DNA of 64,000 nucleotides from a virus (lineage: Duplodnaviria; Caudoviricetes). The DNA lies in IMG/VR virus record IMGVR_UViG_3300037851_000141, positions 267,850 to 331,849 of that record; one strand, written 5' to 3'. The notes beneath the pieces were generated by a model. The model saw only the letters and a program-made list of their open reading frames with translations, was not told the DNA's origin and ran no database searches. Positions within the stretch are counted from its first letter, which is position 1; each line of letters opens with the position of its first letter. A program made the translations under genes and the position numbers. Below, piece by piece: positions 5,564 through 49,003 of this stretch.

Positions 5564-6244
5564 ATGAAAAAACTTAATGAAGACTGGTTTGACAATACAA
5601 TGAAAGATTCTATATCACAACTATCAAAAGATGTAAAAGCAAATCTTAGTAGTCTGAAAATCTTAGAATACTACCCATACGGACCAAAAAAGACATATGC
5701 CTCTTGGTTACGTTGCTCTGAAGATTTGAGTCAAGAATATATTGTACATGACCGATATTCTAAGATGACAGAAATGGAATTGGTTGTTGATATAATGTCT
5801 GAAGTGTCCAAAGCAATGTACTATACTATCATTGACAGACCTGGATTCAGTAAATACCAGACTATTCAAGCGTTTGGTATGAGTCAGATATTTAGTCGTG
5901 GAATAATTGATTGGAATAAAGAAATAACAAAAGGAAAAACTGAAGCCGAAATAATTGCTTTGGAAACGAAACATGAGAAACTGTTGCGCCGAGTTCATAG
6001 TGATTATAATGAAATACAATTTAAGCGATCATTAAAGCATTATCCAGTAAATGAAAGAAAAGCGTTAATTGAAGAACATGAGAAGGAAGAACAAAAACAT
6101 AAGGAAGCCAATCGAAAAAAGTATGGGATATATGAAGTTAAAGTCCTACCTCTTATGGGTGAAACTGGTAAGCCACTCTATACGAAACAACAACTCGCGG
6201 CCATAAATTTCATCGTAGGCATGTCTTTTGAGAATATGTGCTGA
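5564..6244 (+). CDS. hypothetical protein
   Basis: 226-aa ORF with AAGGA RBS. Confidence 0.65.
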   Translation: MKKLNEDWFDNTMKDSISQLSKDVKANLSSLKILEYYPYGPKKTYASWLRCSEDLSQEYIVHDRYSKMTEMELVVDIMSEVSKAMYYTIIDRPGFSKYQTIQAFGMSQIFSRGIIDWNKEITKGKTEAEIIALETKHEKLLRRVHSDYNEIQFKRSLKHYPVNERKALIEEHEKEEQKHKEANRKKYGIYEVKVLPLMGETGKPLYTKQQLAAINFIVGMSFENMC

Positions 6245-7002: not shown

Positions 7003-7656
7003 TTATAATCCAGGAGCCGCGTCTGATTTACGGTCATCATAAGGCATAGTGTAATCTGGACGACTCATTCTATCTCTTTGACCGTCTTCATCATCAGAAT
7101 CATTCCAACCATTTTCATACGCCCAAGCAAGTATCGGTTCTTTTGGTTTAGGCCAAGTTTCGCTTGTTCTACGTCTTCCATCAATATAAGCTTTTATTAG
7201 TTTATATAATAGAGAATCTTCTGGTATTTTCTTTTCGAAGAAATCTCCAAGTTGATTATCAGATGGACGGAATTGTTTAGCTTGTGCGTAGAATTTCTTT
7301 TCGGTTTCAGATCCAGCACCTAATTGTGGAAGGTTGAGTGCTTCTGTCATGGCTGCTATTTCTTCTGGAGTTACATCAATCTTTTCATATGAGGCGTCAG
7401 GTAAGTTTTCGACCTTACCAAAATCATTAAGGGATTGAATGTATCCTTTATCATACGCCATACGTTCTTTTTCATTAGCAGGAGGCATATAGTTTGGATA
7501 ATCCTGTTGACCCTTTTCTTCCCAATTAGTTTTTGCTGTTGGTTGAATCTGTTTACGGTGTCTGACTGCTGCTCTTGTTAATCTTCCTTCGCCCATTATA
7601 GATTCGTTTAGTTGTTGCCAAGTCTTTTTTAGGTCTTTATATAGTTTGTCGTCCAT
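7003..7656 (-). CDS. late-expressed putative head-internal protein
   Basis: TATAAATA at 7684-7677 overlaps the track start, so start moved to MDDKLY (AAAGGA RBS); LNE candidate protease site. Confidence 0.65.
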   Translation of the reverse strand: MDDKLYKDLKKTWQQLNESIMGEGRLTRAAVRHRKQIQPTAKTNWEEKGQQDYPNYMPPANEKERMAYDKGYIQSLNDFGKVENLPDASYEKIDVTPEEIAAMTEALNLPQLGAGSETEKKFYAQAKQFRPSDNQLGDFFEKKIPEDSLLYKLIKAYIDGRRRTSETWPKPKEPILAWAYENGWNDSDDEDGQRDRMSRPDYTMPYDDRKSDAAPGL

Positions 7657-7696
7657 TTGAGTTATTCCTTTAGACATATTTATATGATTTTTGTTC

Positions 7697-7724
7697 TTGA
7701 CTCTACATAAATAGCTGATAGAAT
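7697..7724 (+). promoter_or_regulatory. sigma70-like promoter of the tRNA-Arg gene
   Basis: TTGACT-N16-TAGAAT. Confidence 0.6.
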
Positions 7725-7743
7725 ATGCGCGTTGAAAAGATAT

Positions 7744-7864
7744 ACCCGTGTAGCTCAGATGGCAGAGCGAGAGCCTTCTGCGGAGATTATAGGAATATAT
7801 TGGGTTCGAATCCCAATCTCTGCTCCAAAGCTCTAGGTCGGAGGTTCAAGTCCTCTCACGGGCG
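7744..7864 (+). tRNA. trnR-UCU: tRNA-Arg(UCU) interrupted at 36/37 by a 48-nt insert
   Basis: D stem GCTC/GAGC, anticodon stem AGAGC/GCTCT, loop CT-TCT-[insert]-AA, T arm GGAGG-TTCAAGT-CCTCT, acceptor CCCGTG/CACGGG; A1-C72 mismatch, C20, followed by CTA rather than CCA. Confidence 0.8.
7780..7827 (+). ncRNA. nested mini-tRNA (acceptor stem + small hairpin + T arm + CCA)
   Basis: GCGGAGA/TCTCTGC 7-bp stem, TATA-GGAA-TATA hairpin, TTGGG-TTCGAAT-CCCAA T arm, T-CCA end. Confidence 0.85.
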
Positions 7865-7869
7865 CTAAC

Positions 7870-7907
7870 AAATAAACCCATCAGCATAACAACTGGTGGG
7901 TTTATTT
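7870..7907 (+). terminator. intrinsic terminator after the tRNA
   Basis: AATAAACCCATCAG...CTGGTGGGTTTATT inverted repeat plus T-rich tail. Confidence 0.7.
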
Positions 7908-7920
7908 GTTATCAGAAACA

Positions 7921-7928
7921 TATAAATA
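7921..7928 (+). promoter_or_regulatory. T4-type late promoter
   Basis: TATAAATA 5 nt upstream of ATG 7934. Confidence 0.6.
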
Positions 7929-7933
7929 TCCAT

Positions 7934-8887
7934 ATGCCACAAGATGATAAAGTTTATAATCAATTAAAAGAAACCTGGAAGAACATTATTCAAGAAATGT
8001 TTATCCACGGTGATCCAAATAATAAGAATGTTATAGCGTTTAGAGATAGTATTTGGTTATTAGCGAATGATATTCCGGCATCACTTGCCAATGAGATATA
8101 TAAAAAAGTAGGAATTGATATCAAGTATAATGAAGATGCTGATTTTTTGGATTTAGCGAATGAAATAATGAATGAAAAGCCGGATGTACTTACAGGGTCT
8201 ATTAATGATAAAACCTTATTAGTTTATAGTTCAGGATCGTTTACATTAGATCCGAAGTCATCTATTCTTATCAAAAAAGTTGTACAGCATCTCAAACTCA
8301 AAAAAGTTGATTATCAGGAAATGGAAGATCAATTTACAGTTCCCAAGAAGAAAATAACTGGTCAAGTTCCAGACATAGCATATCATGGAACGTCTCTCAA
8401 TTATCTCGATAGCATTTTGAGACACGGATTAGAACCAAGAGGAAGTCAAAGCAATTACGAACAACAAGGCATTTACCACGATGATAAGATATTTTTCTCA
8501 ACTAGATTTGGAGAAGCAAGTCATCACGCAGATCATACAGCAGCATTGAAACAATCTAAACCTGTTGTTATTGAGTTTAGAATTCCAGATAAAAATCTTA
8601 TAACTCCAGATTATGACATTGATATCCAAAGTGGTGAAACGTTGTGGTCAGATACAAGAGATAGCAAATCGAAACTTACCAATCCAAAGAGTCAAAGCGC
8701 AAGTCAAGAGTTTGGAATATACGGTTATCAAGGAAAAATAATACCCCAACATTTTAGATATTTTTACATAAACTTAAGTGGGGATGAATATTCAACGCTT
8801 AAAAGCTATAAGAGATTTACATACAAACAATTACAAAAAATTATTAACAGATATGGTGACTTAGAATCTTATTTGGATTATTATTGA
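7934..8887 (+). CDS. ADP-ribosyltransferase-fold protein (HGT motif, Tpt1/KptA C-domain-like), probably virion-packaged
   Basis: AYHGTSLNYLDSILRHGLEP...IFFST...KPVVIEF; late promoter; N-terminus shared with 7003..7656. Confidence 0.65.
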   Translation: MPQDDKVYNQLKETWKNIIQEMFIHGDPNNKNVIAFRDSIWLLANDIPASLANEIYKKVGIDIKYNEDADFLDLANEIMNEKPDVLTGSINDKTLLVYSSGSFTLDPKSSILIKKVVQHLKLKKVDYQEMEDQFTVPKKKITGQVPDIAYHGTSLNYLDSILRHGLEPRGSQSNYEQQGIYHDDKIFFSTRFGEASHHADHTAALKQSKPVVIEFRIPDKNLITPDYDIDIQSGETLWSDTRDSKSKLTNPKSQSASQEFGIYGYQGKIIPQHFRYFYINLSGDEYSTLKSYKRFTYKQLQKIINRYGDLESYLDYY

Positions 8888-8948
8888 TACTTTAGTTGTT
8901 GATTTTAGATTCTGCTTGACTTTTATTTTTTGACTGTATAATGTGGTC

Positions 8949-9914
8949 ATGAACTTAGAGAATATCGGCTTTTACACTTTATCTGATGACCGGGCTAAGA
9001 ACTCGTCAGATAAGACTCCATTACATCGGTGTGAACTACTGTTAACTAAACGTTGTAATTTTAGATGTCCTTATTGTCGTGGAACTGGCCCTAAGCAAGA
9101 GGCATCATTAGAAGAAGCCCAAATGGTTGTTTCTGAGTGGGCTAAACATGGATTGAAGAATGTTAGGTTTTCTGGTGGTGAACCTACAGTTTGGCCGCAT
9201 TTGGTAGAATTGATTAAGCATACCAAGTCATTAGGTGTTGAGCGCATTGCTATTTCTTCAAACGGTAGTGCGAGTAAGGAATTATATAAAGAGTTATGTG
9301 ATTCTGGAGTAAACGATTTTTCTATTTCATTGGATGCTTGTTGTTCCTCTACTGGTGATACTATGTCTGGTGTAAAAGGTGCTTGGAATACTGTTGTCGA
9401 GAATATTAAGTATCTTTCGACCTTGACATATGTTACAGTAGGTGTCGTTCTAACTAATAATAACATTGAAGAATTGGGTAAAATCATTGAATTTGCTCAT
9501 AAACTTGGTGTTGCTGATATTAGAATCATTTCAGCGGCTCAAGTCTCAAATGATATAATTCTGAATGTTGATGTGTCTGATGATGTAAAAATGAAGCATC
9601 CTATCTTAATGTATCGTTTGAAGAACTTATCTGTTGGAAGAAATGTTCGTGGATTAAAAGAAACTGACACCCACAAATGTCCTTTGGTATTAGACGATAT
9701 GGCTGTTATGGATGGAAAACATTATCCTTGTATCATCTATATGCGTGAAGGTGGAGCCGCTATCGGTGAAGTTGGACCTAATATGCGTCAAGAGCGTTTA
9801 GATTGGTTCAATAAGACTGATACTCATAAAAATAAAATATGTAAAAATAACTGTTTGGATGTTTGTCAAGATTTCAATAACAAGTGGGAAGAGTTTCGGA
9901 AAAATCCTGCTTGA
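8949..9914 (+). CDS. radical SAM enzyme (MoaA/NirJ-like)
   Basis: CNFRCPYC, FSGGEPT, ISSNG, ISLD motifs; C-terminal Cys cluster; ATG 6 nt after TATAAT. Confidence 0.85.
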   Translation: MNLENIGFYTLSDDRAKNSSDKTPLHRCELLLTKRCNFRCPYCRGTGPKQEASLEEAQMVVSEWAKHGLKNVRFSGGEPTVWPHLVELIKHTKSLGVERIAISSNGSASKELYKELCDSGVNDFSISLDACCSSTGDTMSGVKGAWNTVVENIKYLSTLTYVTVGVVLTNNNIEELGKIIEFAHKLGVADIRIISAAQVSNDIILNVDVSDDVKMKHPILMYRLKNLSVGRNVRGLKETDTHKCPLVLDDMAVMDGKHYPCIIYMREGGAAIGEVGPNMRQERLDWFNKTDTHKNKICKNNCLDVCQDFNNKWEEFRKNPA

Positions 9915-10465: not shown

Positions 10466-10697
10466 ATATCCGCCCAACTCTTTAGATTGTTAAATATCTA
10501 AGGAACAAAACTATAAGCCCCAAAAAGGCATATAGCGCATCTTTCCTTCGGGGAAGATTAACATACCTGGAACCGATAGTGGTAGAGCCTTGAGCTATTC
10601 TTGACTCTTACATTATCCGAACTCTTTAATCCGAAATCAAGCTTCCAGGCTCTTTTCGTTCCTTTATATTTAACGGTTTGATGGGTTGGGCGGATAT
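10466..10697 (+). ncRNA. structured RNA candidate 3' of the coiled-coil gene
   Basis: perfect 13-bp closing stem 10466-10478/10685-10697, inner stems, C(UUCG)G hairpin, G-U pairs favour the + strand. Confidence 0.65.
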
Positions 10698-10699
10698 TT

Positions 10700-11758
10700 T
10701 TATTCTATCTCTCCACCACCTAAACAAACATCATTAGCCAAGTCATAGAATACCGCATGTTGACCTGGAGCCGCAACTACAGGATCATCAGTTAAGACTT
10801 TTACAACAGAATCAGATTTGTATAACTTAGCCTTTGTACAGGTTCCACGATAACGAACTTGACAAACGACTTCCATACCATCATAAAAAGGTCCAGGGAA
10901 CAATTCATTTTTGATAGTAAAGTCATTAGTTGAAATCTTCTCAATAGTATCAACATATATTACATTATTATTGACATCTACCTTATCAACAAAGAGTGGA
11001 ATTGGAGTACCGTGTAAGCCGATTCCTTTTCTTTGGCCTTTAGTCTTTCCCCAAACGCCATTATGTTGCCCAATTACCATATTCTTATATACAATAGGTC
11101 CACGCTTTTTCTGTAATCCACCAAAGTCAAATAGGAACTCACTAATATTGCCACCAGGGACCATACACAGATCGGTAGAGTCGGGTTTAGCGGCAACATG
11201 AATCCCGATCTTATTAGCAATCTCCCTAATCTCCATTTTAGTAGAGAATCCACCTAAAGGGAAATGAATCTGTGGAATTATATCTTTAGGAATCCGATAG
11301 AGGAAGTAAGACTGGTCCTTTTTCAGATCCTTGGCCCTAGTGATAAAGAACTGATCATCTATCTCTTTCGTATTAGCATAATGTCCGGTTGCTAAATGAA
11401 CAGACCTATCACCATTTACAGCTTGGTAGAGGCTATTGATTTTAGTTGTGGCATTACAGAGGATACAAGGTGATGGAGTTAAGCCATTCTCGTAATCCTT
11501 TACCATTGGCTTTACAGTATGGTCCATAAAGGTCTGTTGAGCATCTATGACCTTAAATTGGATACCTAAGTCATTGGCAATCTTTGAAGCATCTTGAGTA
11601 GCTTTAGCATTACAACAGGATGCCGAATTGATATTTTGATTACAACGCCAAAGGACAAGATTTACTCCAATGACGTTATATCCATTACTCTTTAGTAGGT
11701 GAGCAGATACAGCAGAGTCAACGCCACCAGACAGACCAACAGCCACAGTAATAGGCAT
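10700..11758 (-). CDS. mnmA: tRNA-specific 2-thiouridylase MnmA
   Basis: SGGVDS, PSPCILCN, ATGHYA, KDQSYFL, GQRKG, VRYR, APGQHAVFY. Confidence 0.95.
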   Translation of the reverse strand: MPITVAVGLSGGVDSAVSAHLLKSNGYNVIGVNLVLWRCNQNINSASCCNAKATQDASKIANDLGIQFKVIDAQQTFMDHTVKPMVKDYENGLTPSPCILCNATTKINSLYQAVNGDRSVHLATGHYANTKEIDDQFFITRAKDLKKDQSYFLYRIPKDIIPQIHFPLGGFSTKMEIREIANKIGIHVAAKPDSTDLCMVPGGNISEFLFDFGGLQKKRGPIVYKNMVIGQHNGVWGKTKGQRKGIGLHGTPIPLFVDKVDVNNNVIYVDTIEKISTNDFTIKNELFPGPFYDGMEVVCQVRYRGTCTKAKLYKSDSVVKVLTDDPVVAAPGQHAVFYDLANDVCLGGGEIE

Positions 11759-12343: not shown

Positions 12344-12580
12344 TTAAGATTCTTTTTTGAAATCGCCTGCCTCATATAGTGCCTTTTCAAGCTGATCTAT
12401 ATCGTCTAGCTTCCAGTAATGTTGAGCCTTCTTCAGAGCCGACTTTAGTTTGTCTATTTCAGCCTGTTGATCACGTAGAACCGGAAACAATTGTAATCTT
12501 ACTTCTTGGGCGGCTCTATTGGCACGTTCATTAGCTCTTTCGACAGCAAGTCGTAATTCGTTTAGTTGTTCATCAATCAT
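12344..12580 (-). CDS. hypothetical coiled-coil protein
   Basis: ORF track; coupled to the upstream gene. Confidence 0.55.
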   Translation of the reverse strand: MIDEQLNELRLAVERANERANRAAQEVRLQLFPVLRDQQAEIDKLKSALKKAQHYWKLDDIDQLEKALYEAGDFKKES

Positions 12581-15722: not shown

Positions 15723-16730
15723 TCAGAAGTTCTTATCTAGGATGTTTACGAAGTTCTTGCGAATAAGAGTTTGTGCTTGTTCTCCGATTCGACTCTTAAT
15801 GGCTTTTTGTTCATCCTTTTCAAGAGTCTCAAAGCCGGGATTCTCTTTGAGGAAGTCTTTATGAGCATCCTGCATGAGTCCACCAAGCAACTTACCGAAA
15901 TCCTTACCAGTAATATCACCAATTTTACTGATGACATTCTTGAGACGATTTTCGGTAATGAATTGTGAGAATGAATCAAGGAGAGCAATAGCACCTTCAG
16001 ACAACTTAAGTTCCTCTTTAGGTGGCCGAGGATGCTTACTCTCTTTACTCTTTTCACTCCACTTATCATTCTTATTCTTGAGGATAACACGACTGCCACA
16101 ACCAAAGAAAAGAGGCTTGACGGGACGAAGTACAACACCCTCGCAGATATTTGGAGAGATTGGAGGTAAACCCAATTGCTCTGGAACCTTAGAATCGAAC
16201 TCATTGGGGTACTTCATGGCGTCTTCAAATGAGCCACAGAATAAGGTCTTAGCATGAAGGAATCCGAATTGAGCGTACAACTTCTCAACAGTCAAGGCAT
16301 CTAACCATTGACCATCAGCAACGATATCAAATCCATAGAAATAGTTATTTGGTCCATAGAATACACCCTTTTGTACTTTGGTTACTCCAGGGACTTTAGC
16401 GACATTAGGATGATCGTAGGAACCACCGCAAATCTCACCGTAAAGAGTCATTTCCTGGCAACCAAGATGCTTATAAAGTGATTCAATCTTATCTTTATGT
16501 GATTCAGCAACACGATTTAGACCATTGAAATTCTCGCCAGGAGCTAAGAAACAACTCCGCTTTCCAAGAATGATTTGACCATCTGGAAGCCGTTTGATTT
16601 GAGCCGAACTGCCATGTACTTTTTCCCCAACAACCCACTGTCCAGCAGAAAAGCCTAATTGGACAATCTTGTTAATGGTTTCGGTACGGTAAGCGTTTTC
16701 AATGTCAGGGAATGAGACGAAGGTAGGCAT
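15723..16730 (-). CDS. rnlB: RNA ligase, T4 Rnl2 family
   Basis: EKVHGSS (motif I), YGEICG, YGFDI, EGVVLRP, ILKNKNDKWSE. Confidence 0.9.
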   Translation of the reverse strand: MPTFVSFPDIENAYRTETINKIVQLGFSAGQWVVGEKVHGSSAQIKRLPDGQIILGKRSCFLAPGENFNGLNRVAESHKDKIESLYKHLGCQEMTLYGEICGGSYDHPNVAKVPGVTKVQKGVFYGPNNYFYGFDIVADGQWLDALTVEKLYAQFGFLHAKTLFCGSFEDAMKYPNEFDSKVPEQLGLPPISPNICEGVVLRPVKPLFFGCGSRVILKNKNDKWSEKSKESKHPRPPKEELKLSEGAIALLDSFSQFITENRLKNVISKIGDITGKDFGKLLGGLMQDAHKDFLKENPGFETLEKDEQKAIKSRIGEQAQTLIRKNFVNILDKNF

Positions 16731-33810: not shown

Positions 33811-34098
33811 TTAGTGGACAGATTGTGATATTTGTAAGCTTTTTAGTACAGCTTGTTTATTTATTTTATGTTGTTTAATATTTTCCATAAAAGGTGATAT
33901 AAAGAATAATTTGGATTCTAAACATAGTGTATCTAACTTATGAGAAAGGTTATACTCTACAAACAAATATAAACTATCTAATAATTCATATCGTTCTAAT
34001 CTAATGTAAGTATTTGGAATATTGAAACAATTTAAGATTCTATATTGAAAGGACTTATAGATTTGTTTTGGTATATACAATCTAATCCTTCCAGTCAA
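33811..34098 (-). CDS. VNK-tag family small protein
   Basis: KINKQAVLKSLQ near the C-terminus. Confidence 0.7.
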   Translation of the reverse strand: MTGRIRLYIPKQIYKSFQYRILNCFNIPNTYIRLERYELLDSLYLFVEYNLSHKLDTLCLESKLFFISPFMENIKQHKINKQAVLKSLQISQSVH

Positions 34099-35293
34099 AT
34101 TTTTGGTAGTTTAGACAGATCCACTTATTGAAACGTTCGGGATCATTGTTCTTTAGGATATCGTCTTTATATTGGAAGAAGTAAGACCAGAAGATTTTGG
34201 GTGCATGCTTTTGAACAGCCATAGCATAATCTTTTTGAGTTGAAGGCTGAAGTTCCCGTAGAGTTGCTTCCGCTTGTTGAGATTGAGTTAGAAGATTAGC
34301 GACTTTGGTTTCGAGAGATTTAGCGAATTCCTTCATAGTGTCAACGAGAACAGGAAAGATATCATCAAGAGTATGGTTGAAGAAAGAATCAATAACAACA
34401 TTACGAGTATGCTTGATATCACCCCCACCTACTGAATGGAGAGATACATAGCGGTTTGATTTGATTTTCGCAATTGGCTTATTACCTTGATAGACAACAA
34501 ACCCTTCAGAGTATTCAACACCATCTTGCTCAATGGCTTCAATACCTTTAGTGTTAACCCAATAGCGAAGATCATCAAGAGTGATAATATCCAGTTCATA
34601 AAGCATCTTCTTCCAAGGTAGACGAAGATTAGATGCTCCATTTGAAAGAAGATTAATTACTATATCATCAAGAGGATCAACATAAGTCCCGTATTCATTA
34701 TGCCTTACAGCGAGAAGCACCACTTGATTTTGAGGATACTTGGTGACAATACGGTTTTCATTACAAGCAAGTTCAAAGATATAGGTATAGTTAGTATCCA
34801 GAAAATTAGCGAGTTGAGTGTTTGAGAGTCCAATAGTCTTGAAGAATAACTCAGAGAATGAAAACTTATAATCCCCGACATTACCAGTAGGGATTGAACC
34901 AAGAGTAGAAGCTTGCCAGTTGTTGGTGATAGGATTATGATAAAGGATAATACAAGACCCATCAACCTTTTCATAAATAGCGAGTTGATTTTTGATAAGA
35001 TTGAAATCAGCTTCATTGAATATAGGACAGAACCCCTCATGCTGATTAAAGAACTTATTGAAAGGACGAGCAACATATTTCCAACCAGATTGAGACTGAT
35101 AGAGAATAGCTCCCCGACATTCAGCAGTCAAGGGTCGAACGAATTTAGCCTGTAGTTGATCATACTTGAATTGATATAACCCATTGTGAGTATTGACATT
35201 TACGCCGAATTCAGTAATAAACTTTTCCTTTATCTCATCCAGAGTAAAGGCTGAGTTGAAATACTTGTTGAGATATTCTTGAAGTTGAGACAT
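34082..35293 (-). CDS. rnlA: RNA ligase, T4 Rnl1 family
   Basis: ECRGAIL, RPFNKFFN, EKVDGS (motif I), YIFEL, EGFVV, KIKSNRY. Confidence 0.88.
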   Translation of the reverse strand: MSQLQEYLNKYFNSAFTLDEIKEKFITEFGVNVNTHNGLYQFKYDQLQAKFVRPLTAECRGAILYQSQSGWKYVARPFNKFFNQHEGFCPIFNEADFNLIKNQLAIYEKVDGSCIILYHNPITNNWQASTLGSIPTGNVGDYKFSFSELFFKTIGLSNTQLANFLDTNYTYIFELACNENRIVTKYPQNQVVLLAVRHNEYGTYVDPLDDIVINLLSNGASNLRLPWKKMLYELDIITLDDLRYWVNTKGIEAIEQDGVEYSEGFVVYQGNKPIAKIKSNRYVSLHSVGGGDIKHTRNVVIDSFFNHTLDDIFPVLVDTMKEFAKSLETKVANLLTQSQQAEATLRELQPSTQKDYAMAVQKHAPKIFWSYFFQYKDDILKNNDPERFNKWICLNYQKFDWKD

Positions 35294-44425: not shown

Positions 44426-44878
44426 TTAGTCAAGAAAGATTCGTTCCATCCTCTTATTTTGGGCATCAATCACATGCTCTGGAACCCGACGATCAATTGC
44501 CCTTTGACTATTGTACATTTTCGCAACACTATCTGAACAAGAAACCGACACAACCCGAACCTCATAACCATATTGCTTCGCCAGATTGATATAGAAACTG
44601 GCTTCCTTATGGGTCGTATTAGTGTTGTCCACGATGATAGCAGGTTGTCTTTGCTTCATCAGATCAGTCACCCAATCCTGATTCCACCTGTGAGCCTCAC
44701 CCAAACGCTTCTGGTCAAACTCATACTTCTCACCACCACTATTGATATACCAAAAATTGTCAGTCGAACAAATCTGACAGTTGGTTTTCAAGACAGTTTC
44801 ATAATGAGTCTTGAGTGCTTCGGCAACGAAACTCTTGCCAGACGCCGAAGAACCCTGCATGAGTACGAGAACCTTCAT
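44426..44878 (-). CDS. P-loop kinase (AAA_33 / polynucleotide 5'-kinase-like)
   Basis: GSSASGKS, STDNF, AHRWNQ, IIVDNTN. Confidence 0.8.
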   Translation of the reverse strand: MKVLVLMQGSSASGKSFVAEALKTHYETVLKTNCQICSTDNFWYINSGGEKYEFDQKRLGEAHRWNQDWVTDLMKQRQPAIIVDNTNTTHKEASFYINLAKQYGYEVRVVSVSCSDSVAKMYNSQRAIDRRVPEHVIDAQNKRMERIFLD

Positions 44879-46454: not shown

Positions 46455-46600
46455 TGGTGGCCCTTGTAGGATTTGAACCTACTGCCAAGATGAATGTAGG
46501 AAGCCACTCCTTGTTTCATTCCTGGCGTCTACCTGACTTCCGCAATGGCTTTTTATCAATAGGAACTTAGTCTTGTTCCGGTTATGCGGTACTGCGGGCC
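46455..46600 (-). ncRNA. 146-nt tRNA-like RNA
   Basis: GGCCC/GGGCC-A-CCA acceptor, GTAGG-TTCAAAT-CCTAC T arm, GCG-GAAGTCAGGTAGA-CGC D-arm-like element, extra inserted domains; no canonical anticodon loop. Confidence 0.65.
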
Positions 46601-48700: not shown

Positions 48701-49003
48701 TGGTGGGACGAGTGGGGTACGATCCCACGACCTAATGCTTCTTACAGACACCATCTTTCGATGAGCATTTCTGCTGTCTGCTTGGACTTTCTCTTAATCT
48801 TCGGCATTATCCGGTCAGATCCTCCGTGTAAAGTCTCTACACTTGCCCGATAGATATTTTACTATCTATCTGCTAGCTCGGGATTGCCATCAGCATTATC
48901 TGTTAAGGTTTCCCCGAATTAGCGGAGTTTTCAATTAGGATTTCTCCTAAAGGTTCCAATTTAGTTCAAAAGGCATTTGCTCTACCTACTGAGCTATCGT
49001 CCC
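48701..49003 (-). tRNA. trnK-UUU: tRNA-Lys(UUU) with group I intron at 36/37
   Basis: exons 49003-48968 and 48740-48701 join to a 76-nt cloverleaf: GGGACGA/TCGTCCC, GCTC/GAGC, AATGC/GCATT, CT-TTT-AA loop, encoded CCA. Confidence 0.92.
48741..48967 (-). ncRNA. group I intron (227 nt, no ORF)
   Basis: follows U36 and ends in G; P/Q/R/S-like elements AATTCGGGGAAAC, AATCCCGAGC, TAGAGACT, AGAGAAAGTCC. Confidence 0.88.

Follow-up and report, generated by a model that had tools for sequence, protein, structure and literature searches.

A CCA-ended, tRNA-shaped intervening sequence in the anticodon loop of a jumbo-phage tRNA-Arg(UCU) gene

To our knowledge, the tRNA introns of bacterial systems are self-splicing only, and protein-dependent tRNA splicing is regarded as a trait of archaea and eukaryotes. 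The closest described relatives of the element reported here are the tRNA introns of Lak megaphages, which were called 'enigmatic', and those of jumbo phages, which 'may encode a tRNA' (Devoto et al. 2019, PMC6784885); a 2026 survey of jumbo phages stated that such introns 'could encode another tRNA' (PMC13037316). Neither paper describes a mechanism, a junction rule, minihelix or microhelix forms or free-standing copies, and a full-text literature search found no mechanism, junction rule, minihelix or microhelix forms. Megaphage tRNA introns have been left unexplained since 2019. Here we describe a 48-nt insert in the anticodon loop of a tRNA-Arg(UCU) gene at 7744-7864 of a 64-kb stretch of phage DNA, referred to below as the window, which forms the end of an IMG/VR virus record of 331,849 bp that was assembled from a freshwater metagenome. 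In this locus and in those related to it, the problem of the megaphage introns takes its simplest form. The phenomenon has a descriptive precedent; what is added is the minimal CCA-ended form, the junction rule and the breadth of occurrence.

The source is a T4-like jumbo phage, which encodes RIIA, topoisomerase II and a DNA polymerase about 31% identical to those of KVP40-type phages. The stretch 7744-7864 matches the Rfam tRNA model (RF00005) from end to end (model positions 1-71; 48.8 bits against a gathering score of 29), and the alignment places a 51-nt insertion in the anticodon loop. When 7780-7827 was excised, the loop CTTCT/AA was restored and ARAGORN called the excised form tRNA-Arg(UCU). 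The first-pass annotation had proposed a tRNA nested inside tRNA-Arg(UCU) at this place, and all the parts it described were found there; its reservations about the outer tRNA, an A1-C72 mismatch and the lack of an encoded CCA, hold as well. On the reading we prefer, 7744-7864 serves the phage as a working tRNA-Arg(UCU) gene that is interrupted at 36/37 and has a promoter and a terminator to itself.

The insert is the 'top half' of a tRNA only: an acceptor stem of 7 bp and a T stem of 5 bp form one stack, the T loop is canonical, and a linker and a terminal UCCA complete the element. It was found that the minimum-free-energy fold of the whole precursor is exactly this nested architecture; the fold z-scores of -1.6 and -1.9 are unremarkable, as is usual for tRNAs. 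An element combining a T loop, a 5/5 T stem, a 7/7 acceptor stem and an NCCA end occurs once in the window and not at all in 300 first-order Markov sequences of 64 kb. No Rfam family matches the insert alone. Its linker, TTATAGGAATATA, bears a GG that probably mimics G18-G19 of the D loop and forms an elbow. The TATA-GGAA-TATA hairpin previously described in this linker covaries with the orthologous locus L338 (GTAG...CTAC), introduced below, but it is not family-wide; the feature shared throughout the family is A(U/A)AGGAA, which carries the GG. It had also been suggested that the G3-U70 wobble might make the insert a decoy for alanyl-tRNA synthetase (AlaRS), and this idea had to be given up. 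The wobble is absent in L338 (GGTTTCT/AGAAACC) and in most paralogues, acceptor stems vary freely among the relatives, and the discriminator is U73 and not the A73 of tRNA-Ala. Since G3-U70 is not conserved, the insert is not an AlaRS mimic.

Lak-type introns resemble the insert in that they interrupt anticodon loops of tRNAs encoded by very large phages (here, a 332-kb phage) and contain a tRNA-like element. By our own reading of Table S6 of PMC6784885, they also have the 3' splice site at or next to the 3' end of that element. They differ in their length of 79-141 nt and in a hairpin and A-rich leader, about 30 nt in all, ahead of an inner tRNA that lacks CCA (Table S6). The insert described here has no such leader: it consists of the inner element only, both of its ends are the splice sites and it terminates in NCCA.

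A tRNA scan of the whole record gave 25 tRNAs, 4 of them 106-121 nt long. In addition to tRNA-Arg(UCU), inserts were found in tRNA-Gln(UUG) (46 nt at 34/35), tRNA-Thr(UGU) (45 nt at 35/36, with AA instead of CCA at the 3' end) and tRNA-Gly(UCC) (35 nt at 36/37, an inner hairpin enclosed by a 6-bp stem, with ACCA at the end). The Arg, Gln and Thr inserts have in common AUAGGAA after the 5' acceptor strand and a canonical T arm, and NCCA ends three of the four. Excision from inner base 1 through CCA (through AA in the Thr insert) yields Arg UCU, Gln UUG, Thr UGU and Gly UCC. ARAGORN did not recover these genes correctly: with default settings it called no tRNA in the window, and with its intron search it called the Arg gene Trp, the Gln gene Pro, the Thr gene Ile and the Gly gene SeC. 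CCA is encoded by 8 of the 25 tRNA genes of the genome and by none of the four interrupted outer tRNAs. A transposase-like protein of 536 aa (L037:1346-2956, plus strand, equal to genome positions 181346-182956; phrog_506 / phrog_12300) ends 51 nt upstream of the interrupted tRNA-Gln. We also noticed a weak covariance-model match (E = 0.56) at 46455-46486 on the minus strand of the window, where a T arm stands alone, with AAGGGCC-ACCA after it and no evident 5' strand to pair with.

The source is a single metagenomic assembly and direct read mapping gave nothing for the source run, which would be consistent with an insert created by an assembly chimera. When contigs of three DNA runs were mapped, their coverage was confined to parts of the neighbouring gene. 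Four such inserts in one genome speak against a chimera, as do identical or homologous nested genes in independent assemblies (G006, G007 and L263; L338, from another run) and an independent Logan assembly that contains 100% of the sampled 31-mers of 7003-8887. We therefore regard a chimera as next to impossible.

The orthologous locus L338 was reached through homologues of the neighbouring protein. Its promoter and terminator flanks are 88% identical to those of the window (7690-7743 and 7865-7933 compared with L338:1150-1407), and the promoter at 7697-7724 is kept at about the same 88%. The tRNA-Arg(UCU) between them has exons that are 53% identical to those of the window and a 52-nt mini-tRNA (mini) that is 60% identical, inserted at the same 36/37 site. 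This mini, GGTTTCT...AGAAACC-G-CCA, has a 7-bp acceptor stem and a T arm, and six of the seven acceptor pairs are changed on both strands. The conserved flanks around a diverged tRNA look like cassette replacement or very fast tRNA evolution.

A scan of IMG/VR, metagenome and genome collections for the AUAGGAA-type motif produced few true members. On a 113-kb phage fragment (G006, identical in G007 and L263) a homologous mini interrupts tRNA-Gln, a 45-nt mini interrupts tRNA-Asn, and 22-nt microhelices (a 7- or 6-bp stem, a small loop and GCCA) interrupt tRNA-Arg(UCU) and tRNA-Pro(UGG); excision by the same rule yields Gln, Asn, Arg and Pro. AUAGGAA-type minis also occur free-standing, in L143, in L239/L116 and in the L081/L248 group, and a covariance model added two more copies in L248, making three in total.

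IMG/VR was also scanned independently of the motif for pairs of T loops with a spacing of 29-34 nt and an intervening CCA; 124 matches were analysed, and the counts are lower bounds. Among these matches, at least 22 CCA-ended elements (21 unique) of 44-75 nt with 7/7 acceptor stems were nested in anticodon loops. The outer tRNAs are Lys, Ile, Asn, Gly, Gln, Glu, Leu and Thr, and the contigs are mostly 100-240 kb long. Across the class, the inner elements range from the 22-nt microhelices to a complete tRNA-Gly(UCC) with CCA, nested at 35/36 of a tRNA-Asn(GUU) in a 139-kb phage genome with terminal repeats (L402:2118-2277, plus strand); this inner tRNA is 78% identical to tRNA-Gly genes of cultured phages. 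Such tRNA-shaped inserts are widespread in large phages. Relatives were also sought among cultured phages: in 50,697 phage records, the only blastn matches to the locus or to any of four other nested genes were ordinary tRNA-Gly genes, which matched the inner element of L402. Seven relatives of the DNA polymerase were found in IMG/VR, five of which were scanned and contained no tRNAs. Two inserts look different. In a Gly-like tRNA on the minus strand of L199 (G006 84692-84879), the insert is 115 nt long and shows neither a clear inner acceptor stem nor a clear CCA, so that it is possibly another intron type, and the Lys insert of L283 has no clean inner acceptor stem.

The free-standing minis were seen in three settings. 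In L239 (11067-11115, plus strand) the mini lies 5 nt downstream of the phage tmRNA gene. The freshwater phage contig L248 has three CCA-ended minis in intergenic gaps (10554-10593, 10801-10845 and 12344-12391, all on the plus strand), each about 20 nt ahead of a start codon, like RNase P/RNase Z 'punctuation' of mRNA. On the minus strand of L143, three tandem copies of a motif of about 24 nt (CGAGGA-N-TAAACCTGGCTAAAAAT) follow the 3' end of the mini (961-1007) before the next gene.

One junction rule describes all of these nested genes. In more than 30 cases at three insertion sites, exact excision of the inner element leaves a 7-nt loop with U33, a purine at 37 and an anticodon suited to the tRNA body, whereas neighbouring excision offsets give inconsistent anticodons. 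Among the at least 22 cases of the motif-independent scan, insertion is at 34/35 in 8, at 35/36 in 8 and at 36/37 in 6. The homologous minis of the two Gln genes even sit one base apart (34/35 and 35/36), and CUUUGGA is restored in both only by the rule. Since the sites vary and the loop is nevertheless restored exactly, there must be selection on exact excision at the inner element's own ends. The 3' junction comes directly after the NCCA end that is present in 9 of 10 nested elements found without requiring CCA. At the 5' side, U stands at -1 in 19 of the 22 scan cases, among the matches listed; U at this position is the preference of bacterial RNase P. The earlier view of the insert as a real intervening sequence of tRNA shape, spliced at its own two ends, is thus supported, with the same arrangement in four tRNAs of this genome, in L338 and in more than 25 other phage tRNAs.

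It might be argued that no splicing takes place, the mini-tRNA being the real product and the outer tRNA either a scaffold or a gene disabled by a selfish tRNA-like element, with its halves discarded. The free-standing minis of L143, L239 and L248 would agree with this, and so would the Gln mini, whose conservation between two phages (76%) exceeds that of the Gln exons (58%). The perfect loops left by exact excision do not, and every outer tRNA has kept a canonical cloverleaf; in L338 the loop was kept while exons and mini diverged. In addition, the genome encodes no tRNA for Gln, Thr, Gly or Lys, and none that reads AGA, other than those of the interrupted genes, the Lys gene described below included. 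The main codons of the phage for Arg, Gln and Lys are AGA, CAA and AAA; AGA makes up 42% of its Arg codons and CAA 82% of its Gln codons. For these reasons we consider the absence of splicing distinctly improbable.

Conservation and covariation of the inner stems were examined in the homologues. In 14 minis, 97% of the stem cells were paired, compared with 53% after shuffling and 35-46% when the strands were slid. The covariation score was 1.198 against 0.269 for shuffled sequences (none of 500 shuffles reached 1.198), and compensatory change was observed in 11 of 12 pairs. Because MAFFT mis-registers minis with 2-3-nt spacers, a covariance-model alignment and a hand-curated table were used instead; in the curated table of nine minis, 107 of 108 stem cells were paired. 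The covariance-model alignment was itself fitted to the structure, and some members had been picked for complementarity, so these values should be read accordingly; other approaches, however, had led to the copies from the source genome, the tRNA-Asn insert of G006, a second L248 mini (L248b) and L338. Some of the unpaired cells are explained by a two-base shift of the window's own row in this alignment. The covariation expected of a real inner structure is strong, and the compensatory changes in L338 add to it. Coordinates of the features in the window are given in Table 1.

Table 1. Coordinates of the interrupted tRNA-Arg(UCU) cassette and of related features in the 64-kb window
Feature	Position	Strand	Basis or remarks
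Sigma-70-like promoter of the tRNA cassette, TTGACT / 16-nt spacer / TG-TAGAAT	7697..7724	+	10/12 consensus positions; extended -10
5' exon of tRNA-Arg(UCU), positions 1-36	7744..7779	+	Ends in loop bases CUUCU; Rfam alignment and ARAGORN
48-nt tRNA-shaped intervening sequence (mini-tRNA)	7780..7827	+	Sequence, folds, family covariation, compensatory changes in the orthologue
Insert acceptor stem, GCGGAGA / TCTCTGC	7780-7786 / 7817-7823	+	7 bp including G3-U70
Insert linker with D-like hairpin TATA-GGAA-TATA	7788-7799	+	
Insert T arm, TTGGG / TTCGAAT / CCCAA	T stem 7800-7804 and 7812-7816; T loop 7805-7811	+	
Insert 3' tail	Discriminator U 7824; CCA 7825-7827	+	
3' exon of tRNA-Arg(UCU), positions 37-73	7828..7864	+	Discriminator G at 7864; no encoded CCA
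15-bp hairpin, likely cassette terminator	7870..7907	+	From sequence; kept in L338
Rnl2-like RNA ligase, alternative candidate for sealing	15723..16730	-	PF09414 76.4 bits; phrog_548 4.6e-69
Rnl1-like ATP-dependent RNA ligase, candidate sealing enzyme	34082..35293	-	PF09511 54.5 bits; phrog_562 8.6e-48
tRNA-Lys(UUU) with a 227-nt group I intron at 36/37	48701..49003	-	ARAGORN

The presumed terminator hairpin has Rfam hairpin-type matches on both strands; it was missed by a simple terminator scan because no T run follows it.

The tRNA-Lys intron is real and lies at 36/37, the same site as the Arg insert, as had been claimed. It matches Intron_gpI with 49.1 bits (cut-off 50; E = 2e-11) at 48761-48979 on the minus strand of the window. 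Two different intron types thus occupy the same tRNA position within one phage. A 220-nt intron of group I size also lies at 36/37 of a tRNA-Arg(UCU) in a 139-kb phage (L152, minus strand, 5651-5946). The position shared with these introns would suit an insert that is itself a self-splicing or self-cleaving ribozyme, although it has no ribozyme core and is 5-10 times smaller than group I introns. At 48 nt, with some relatives of 22 nt, such an activity is hard to accommodate; no Rfam ribozyme or intron family, RF00028 included, was found in 7700-7920 at E values up to 10, and the conserved features are tRNA features only. A ribozyme is accordingly a very improbable explanation.

How the insert leaves the precursor has to be deduced from its shape and from the enzymes available. 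We lean somewhat towards a pathway in which RNase P acts at the 5' end, an endonuclease acts after CCA and an ATP-dependent RNA ligase of the phage seals the exons, each of these catalytic steps being one that we infer. The insert would be recognised in the precursor as a pre-tRNA, and RNase P would cut at insert base 1 (7779/7780), leaving a 3'-OH on the 5' exon. An endonuclease of the RNase Z/BN or RNase E type, cutting directly after the encoded CCA, would free the 3' end of the insert and leave a 5'-phosphate on the 3' exon. The exon halves would stay paired, like those of a tRNA nicked by an anticodon nuclease, and could then be joined by the Rnl1-like (or Rnl2-like) ligase; the outer tRNA would be completed by the CCA-adding enzyme of the phage. 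A free 48-nt mini-tRNA would be released, either as a by-product or as a second product.

What favours RNase P is that the 5' junction falls without exception on the first base of an acceptor-like helix with NCCA behind it; substrates of bacterial RNase P are defined by this geometry. Judged from its sequence, the insert appears to have the features of an RNase P minihelix: a 7+5-bp stack, a TTCGAAT loop, UCCA and U at -1 (7779). Thermotoga maritima RNase Z, and E. coli RNase E acting on proline tRNAs, are documented to cut in a single step just behind CCA (PMC7479834). The predicted 3'-OH and 5'-phosphate ends are those that ATP-dependent ligases need, so they agree with sealing by an Rnl-type enzyme. 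Both ligases invoked by the first-pass annotation are indeed encoded by the phage, which also has a CCA-adding enzyme and a kinase. A profile search with positive controls did not find the splicing endonuclease PF01974 in the phage, and RtcB is absent from it and from 24 of 24 other nested-tRNA records. In 10 of the 13 nested-tRNA records that are at least 79% complete, Rnl1 or PF09414 scored above the cut-off, and the other three gave sub-threshold matches; the ligase content of these phages fits 3'-OH/5'-phosphate chemistry.

Several described systems share parts of this pathway. Archaeal and eukaryal tRNA introns also interrupt the anticodon loop and are removed by protein-dependent cutting and then ligation, as proposed for the insert. 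They lie at 37/38, whereas the phage inserts lie at 34/35 to 36/37; the insert forms no bulge-helix-bulge, its cut sites flanking a 12-bp intron helix in the fold instead of a 4-bp exon-intron helix; and the ends proposed here are 3'-OH and 5'-phosphate, with neither a homologue of the endonuclease nor RtcB in the phage. In mascRNA (from MALAT1) and in mitochondrial tRNA punctuation, a tRNA-like fold is excised by RNase P and RNase Z and a small RNA is released, and the intergenic minis of L248 resemble the mitochondrial type. Unlike what is proposed for the insert, the flanking pieces in those systems are not religated into a functional RNA. The final step would resemble the PrrC/Pnkp/Rnl1 repair of T4, in which Rnl1 seals an anticodon-loop nick in an otherwise intact tRNA, although the T4 nick is damage by a host anticodon nuclease that needs healing, whereas the nick here would be programmed and healing unnecessary.

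A number of observations weigh against the RNase P pathway. The phage encodes neither a metallo-beta-lactamase/RNase Z homologue nor an RNase P RNA, and Rfam found no RNA family in the source genome besides tRNAs (apart from the tRNA-Lys group I intron match just under the cut-off). No 3'-cutting enzyme was identified, and enzymes of the host must therefore be assumed. An encoded CCA blocks rather than redirects RNase Z in many bacteria. CCA alone does not determine the 3' site, as the AA end of the Thr insert shows, and the T arm normally required by RNase Z is missing from the 22-nt microhelices. U-rich anticodons account for part of the excess of U at -1. One mechanism may not cover the whole class, since Lak introns have a 5' extension of about 30 nt and no CCA. 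A search for sequencing runs containing the locus yielded no RNA runs. Lastly, ATP-dependent RNA ligases are common in jumbo phages (PMC7824862), and for this reason their presence is weak evidence.

The AA end of the Thr insert and the microhelices without a T arm, awkward for RNase Z, would be easier to understand if a true intron were cut by a dedicated endonuclease that recognises its shape, with neither RNase P nor RNase Z involved. Such an enzyme would leave a 2',3'-cyclic phosphate and a 5'-OH, to be healed by a kinase/phosphatase in the manner of T4 Pnkp/Rnl1 or of yeast Trl1/Tpt1 and sealed by Rnl1. The phage does encode an AAA_33 kinase (at about 44441-44869 of the window, minus strand) and a protein with a polynucleotide-kinase/HAD-like segment, and the gene adjoining the tRNA, at 7934-8887, encodes an ADP-ribosyltransferase fold with weak Tpt1/KptA matches and has homologues beside other phage tRNAs. 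No candidate for the endonuclease was identified, PF01974 being absent, and such an enzyme would leave unexplained why the 5' junction coincides with base 1 of an acceptor helix followed by NCCA, an exact RNase P substrate. We consider this alternative unlikely, though less so than the absence of splicing, and retain the RNase P pathway as the working model.

The product of 7934-8887 (plus strand; phrog_11974; AF2 pLDDT 85.8) was also considered as a Tpt1 and rejected. Against Tpt1/KptA (PF01885) it scored 19.9 bits, below the cut-off of 26, and Foldseek placed pertussis- and cholera-type ADP-ribosyltransferases first, with Tpt1 lower (TM 0.16-0.25). The catalytic residues of Tpt1 are an R-H-R-R tetrad, and the conserved HGT...Y...E is not of this kind; pertussis/cholera-type enzymes and DarT1 match better. 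The gene therefore gives no solid support for a 2'-phosphate pathway.

We suggest, more tentatively than the pathway itself, that 'tRNA-shaped introns' constitute a distinct class, in which the splice sites are the maturation sites of the embedded element, universal tRNA end-processing enzymes carry out the excision and ATP-dependent ligases of the phage do the joining. If this is true, a single gene would give rise to two RNAs, namely its outer tRNA and, from the insert, a further tRNA or a mini-tRNA, and phage Rnl1/Rnl2 would gain a constitutive role beyond the repair of nuclease damage. As long as the precursor is interrupted, the phage tRNAs could escape the anticodon nucleases of the host, or the interruption could couple tRNA supply to ligase expression, and released or free-standing minis could serve as processing punctuation or as decoys for toxins that attack the acceptor end. 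Should the model hold, a new splicing pathway would be added, it would be explained in part why large phages keep RNA ligases and CCA-adding enzymes, and many phage tRNA genes would prove to be missed or mis-typed by standard annotation. The inserts would then also be natural minimal RNase P/RNase Z substrates, and their design would allow two small RNAs to be expressed compactly from a single gene. Because the insert comprises only a CCA-terminated substrate of RNase P type whose two ends are the splice sites, the mechanism can be tested directly with three purified enzymes.

The surroundings of the tRNA cassette provided some further observations. The source phage is rich in genes for tRNA modification and tRNA repair; near the cassette lie a radical-SAM enzyme (8943-9914 of the window, plus strand) and an MnmA-type tRNA 2-thiouridylase (10700-11758, minus strand). 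Members of the phrog_11974 family stand directly beside tRNA genes in several unrelated phage contigs (for example L464:487-1512 and L339:3001-4005). We also noticed recurrent tRNA-like genes with a CTACGAA loop (anticodon ACG) in L094, L120, L155, L056, L098, L167, L403 and L439; they have no normal D arm, a long variable region containing GG and an NCCA end.

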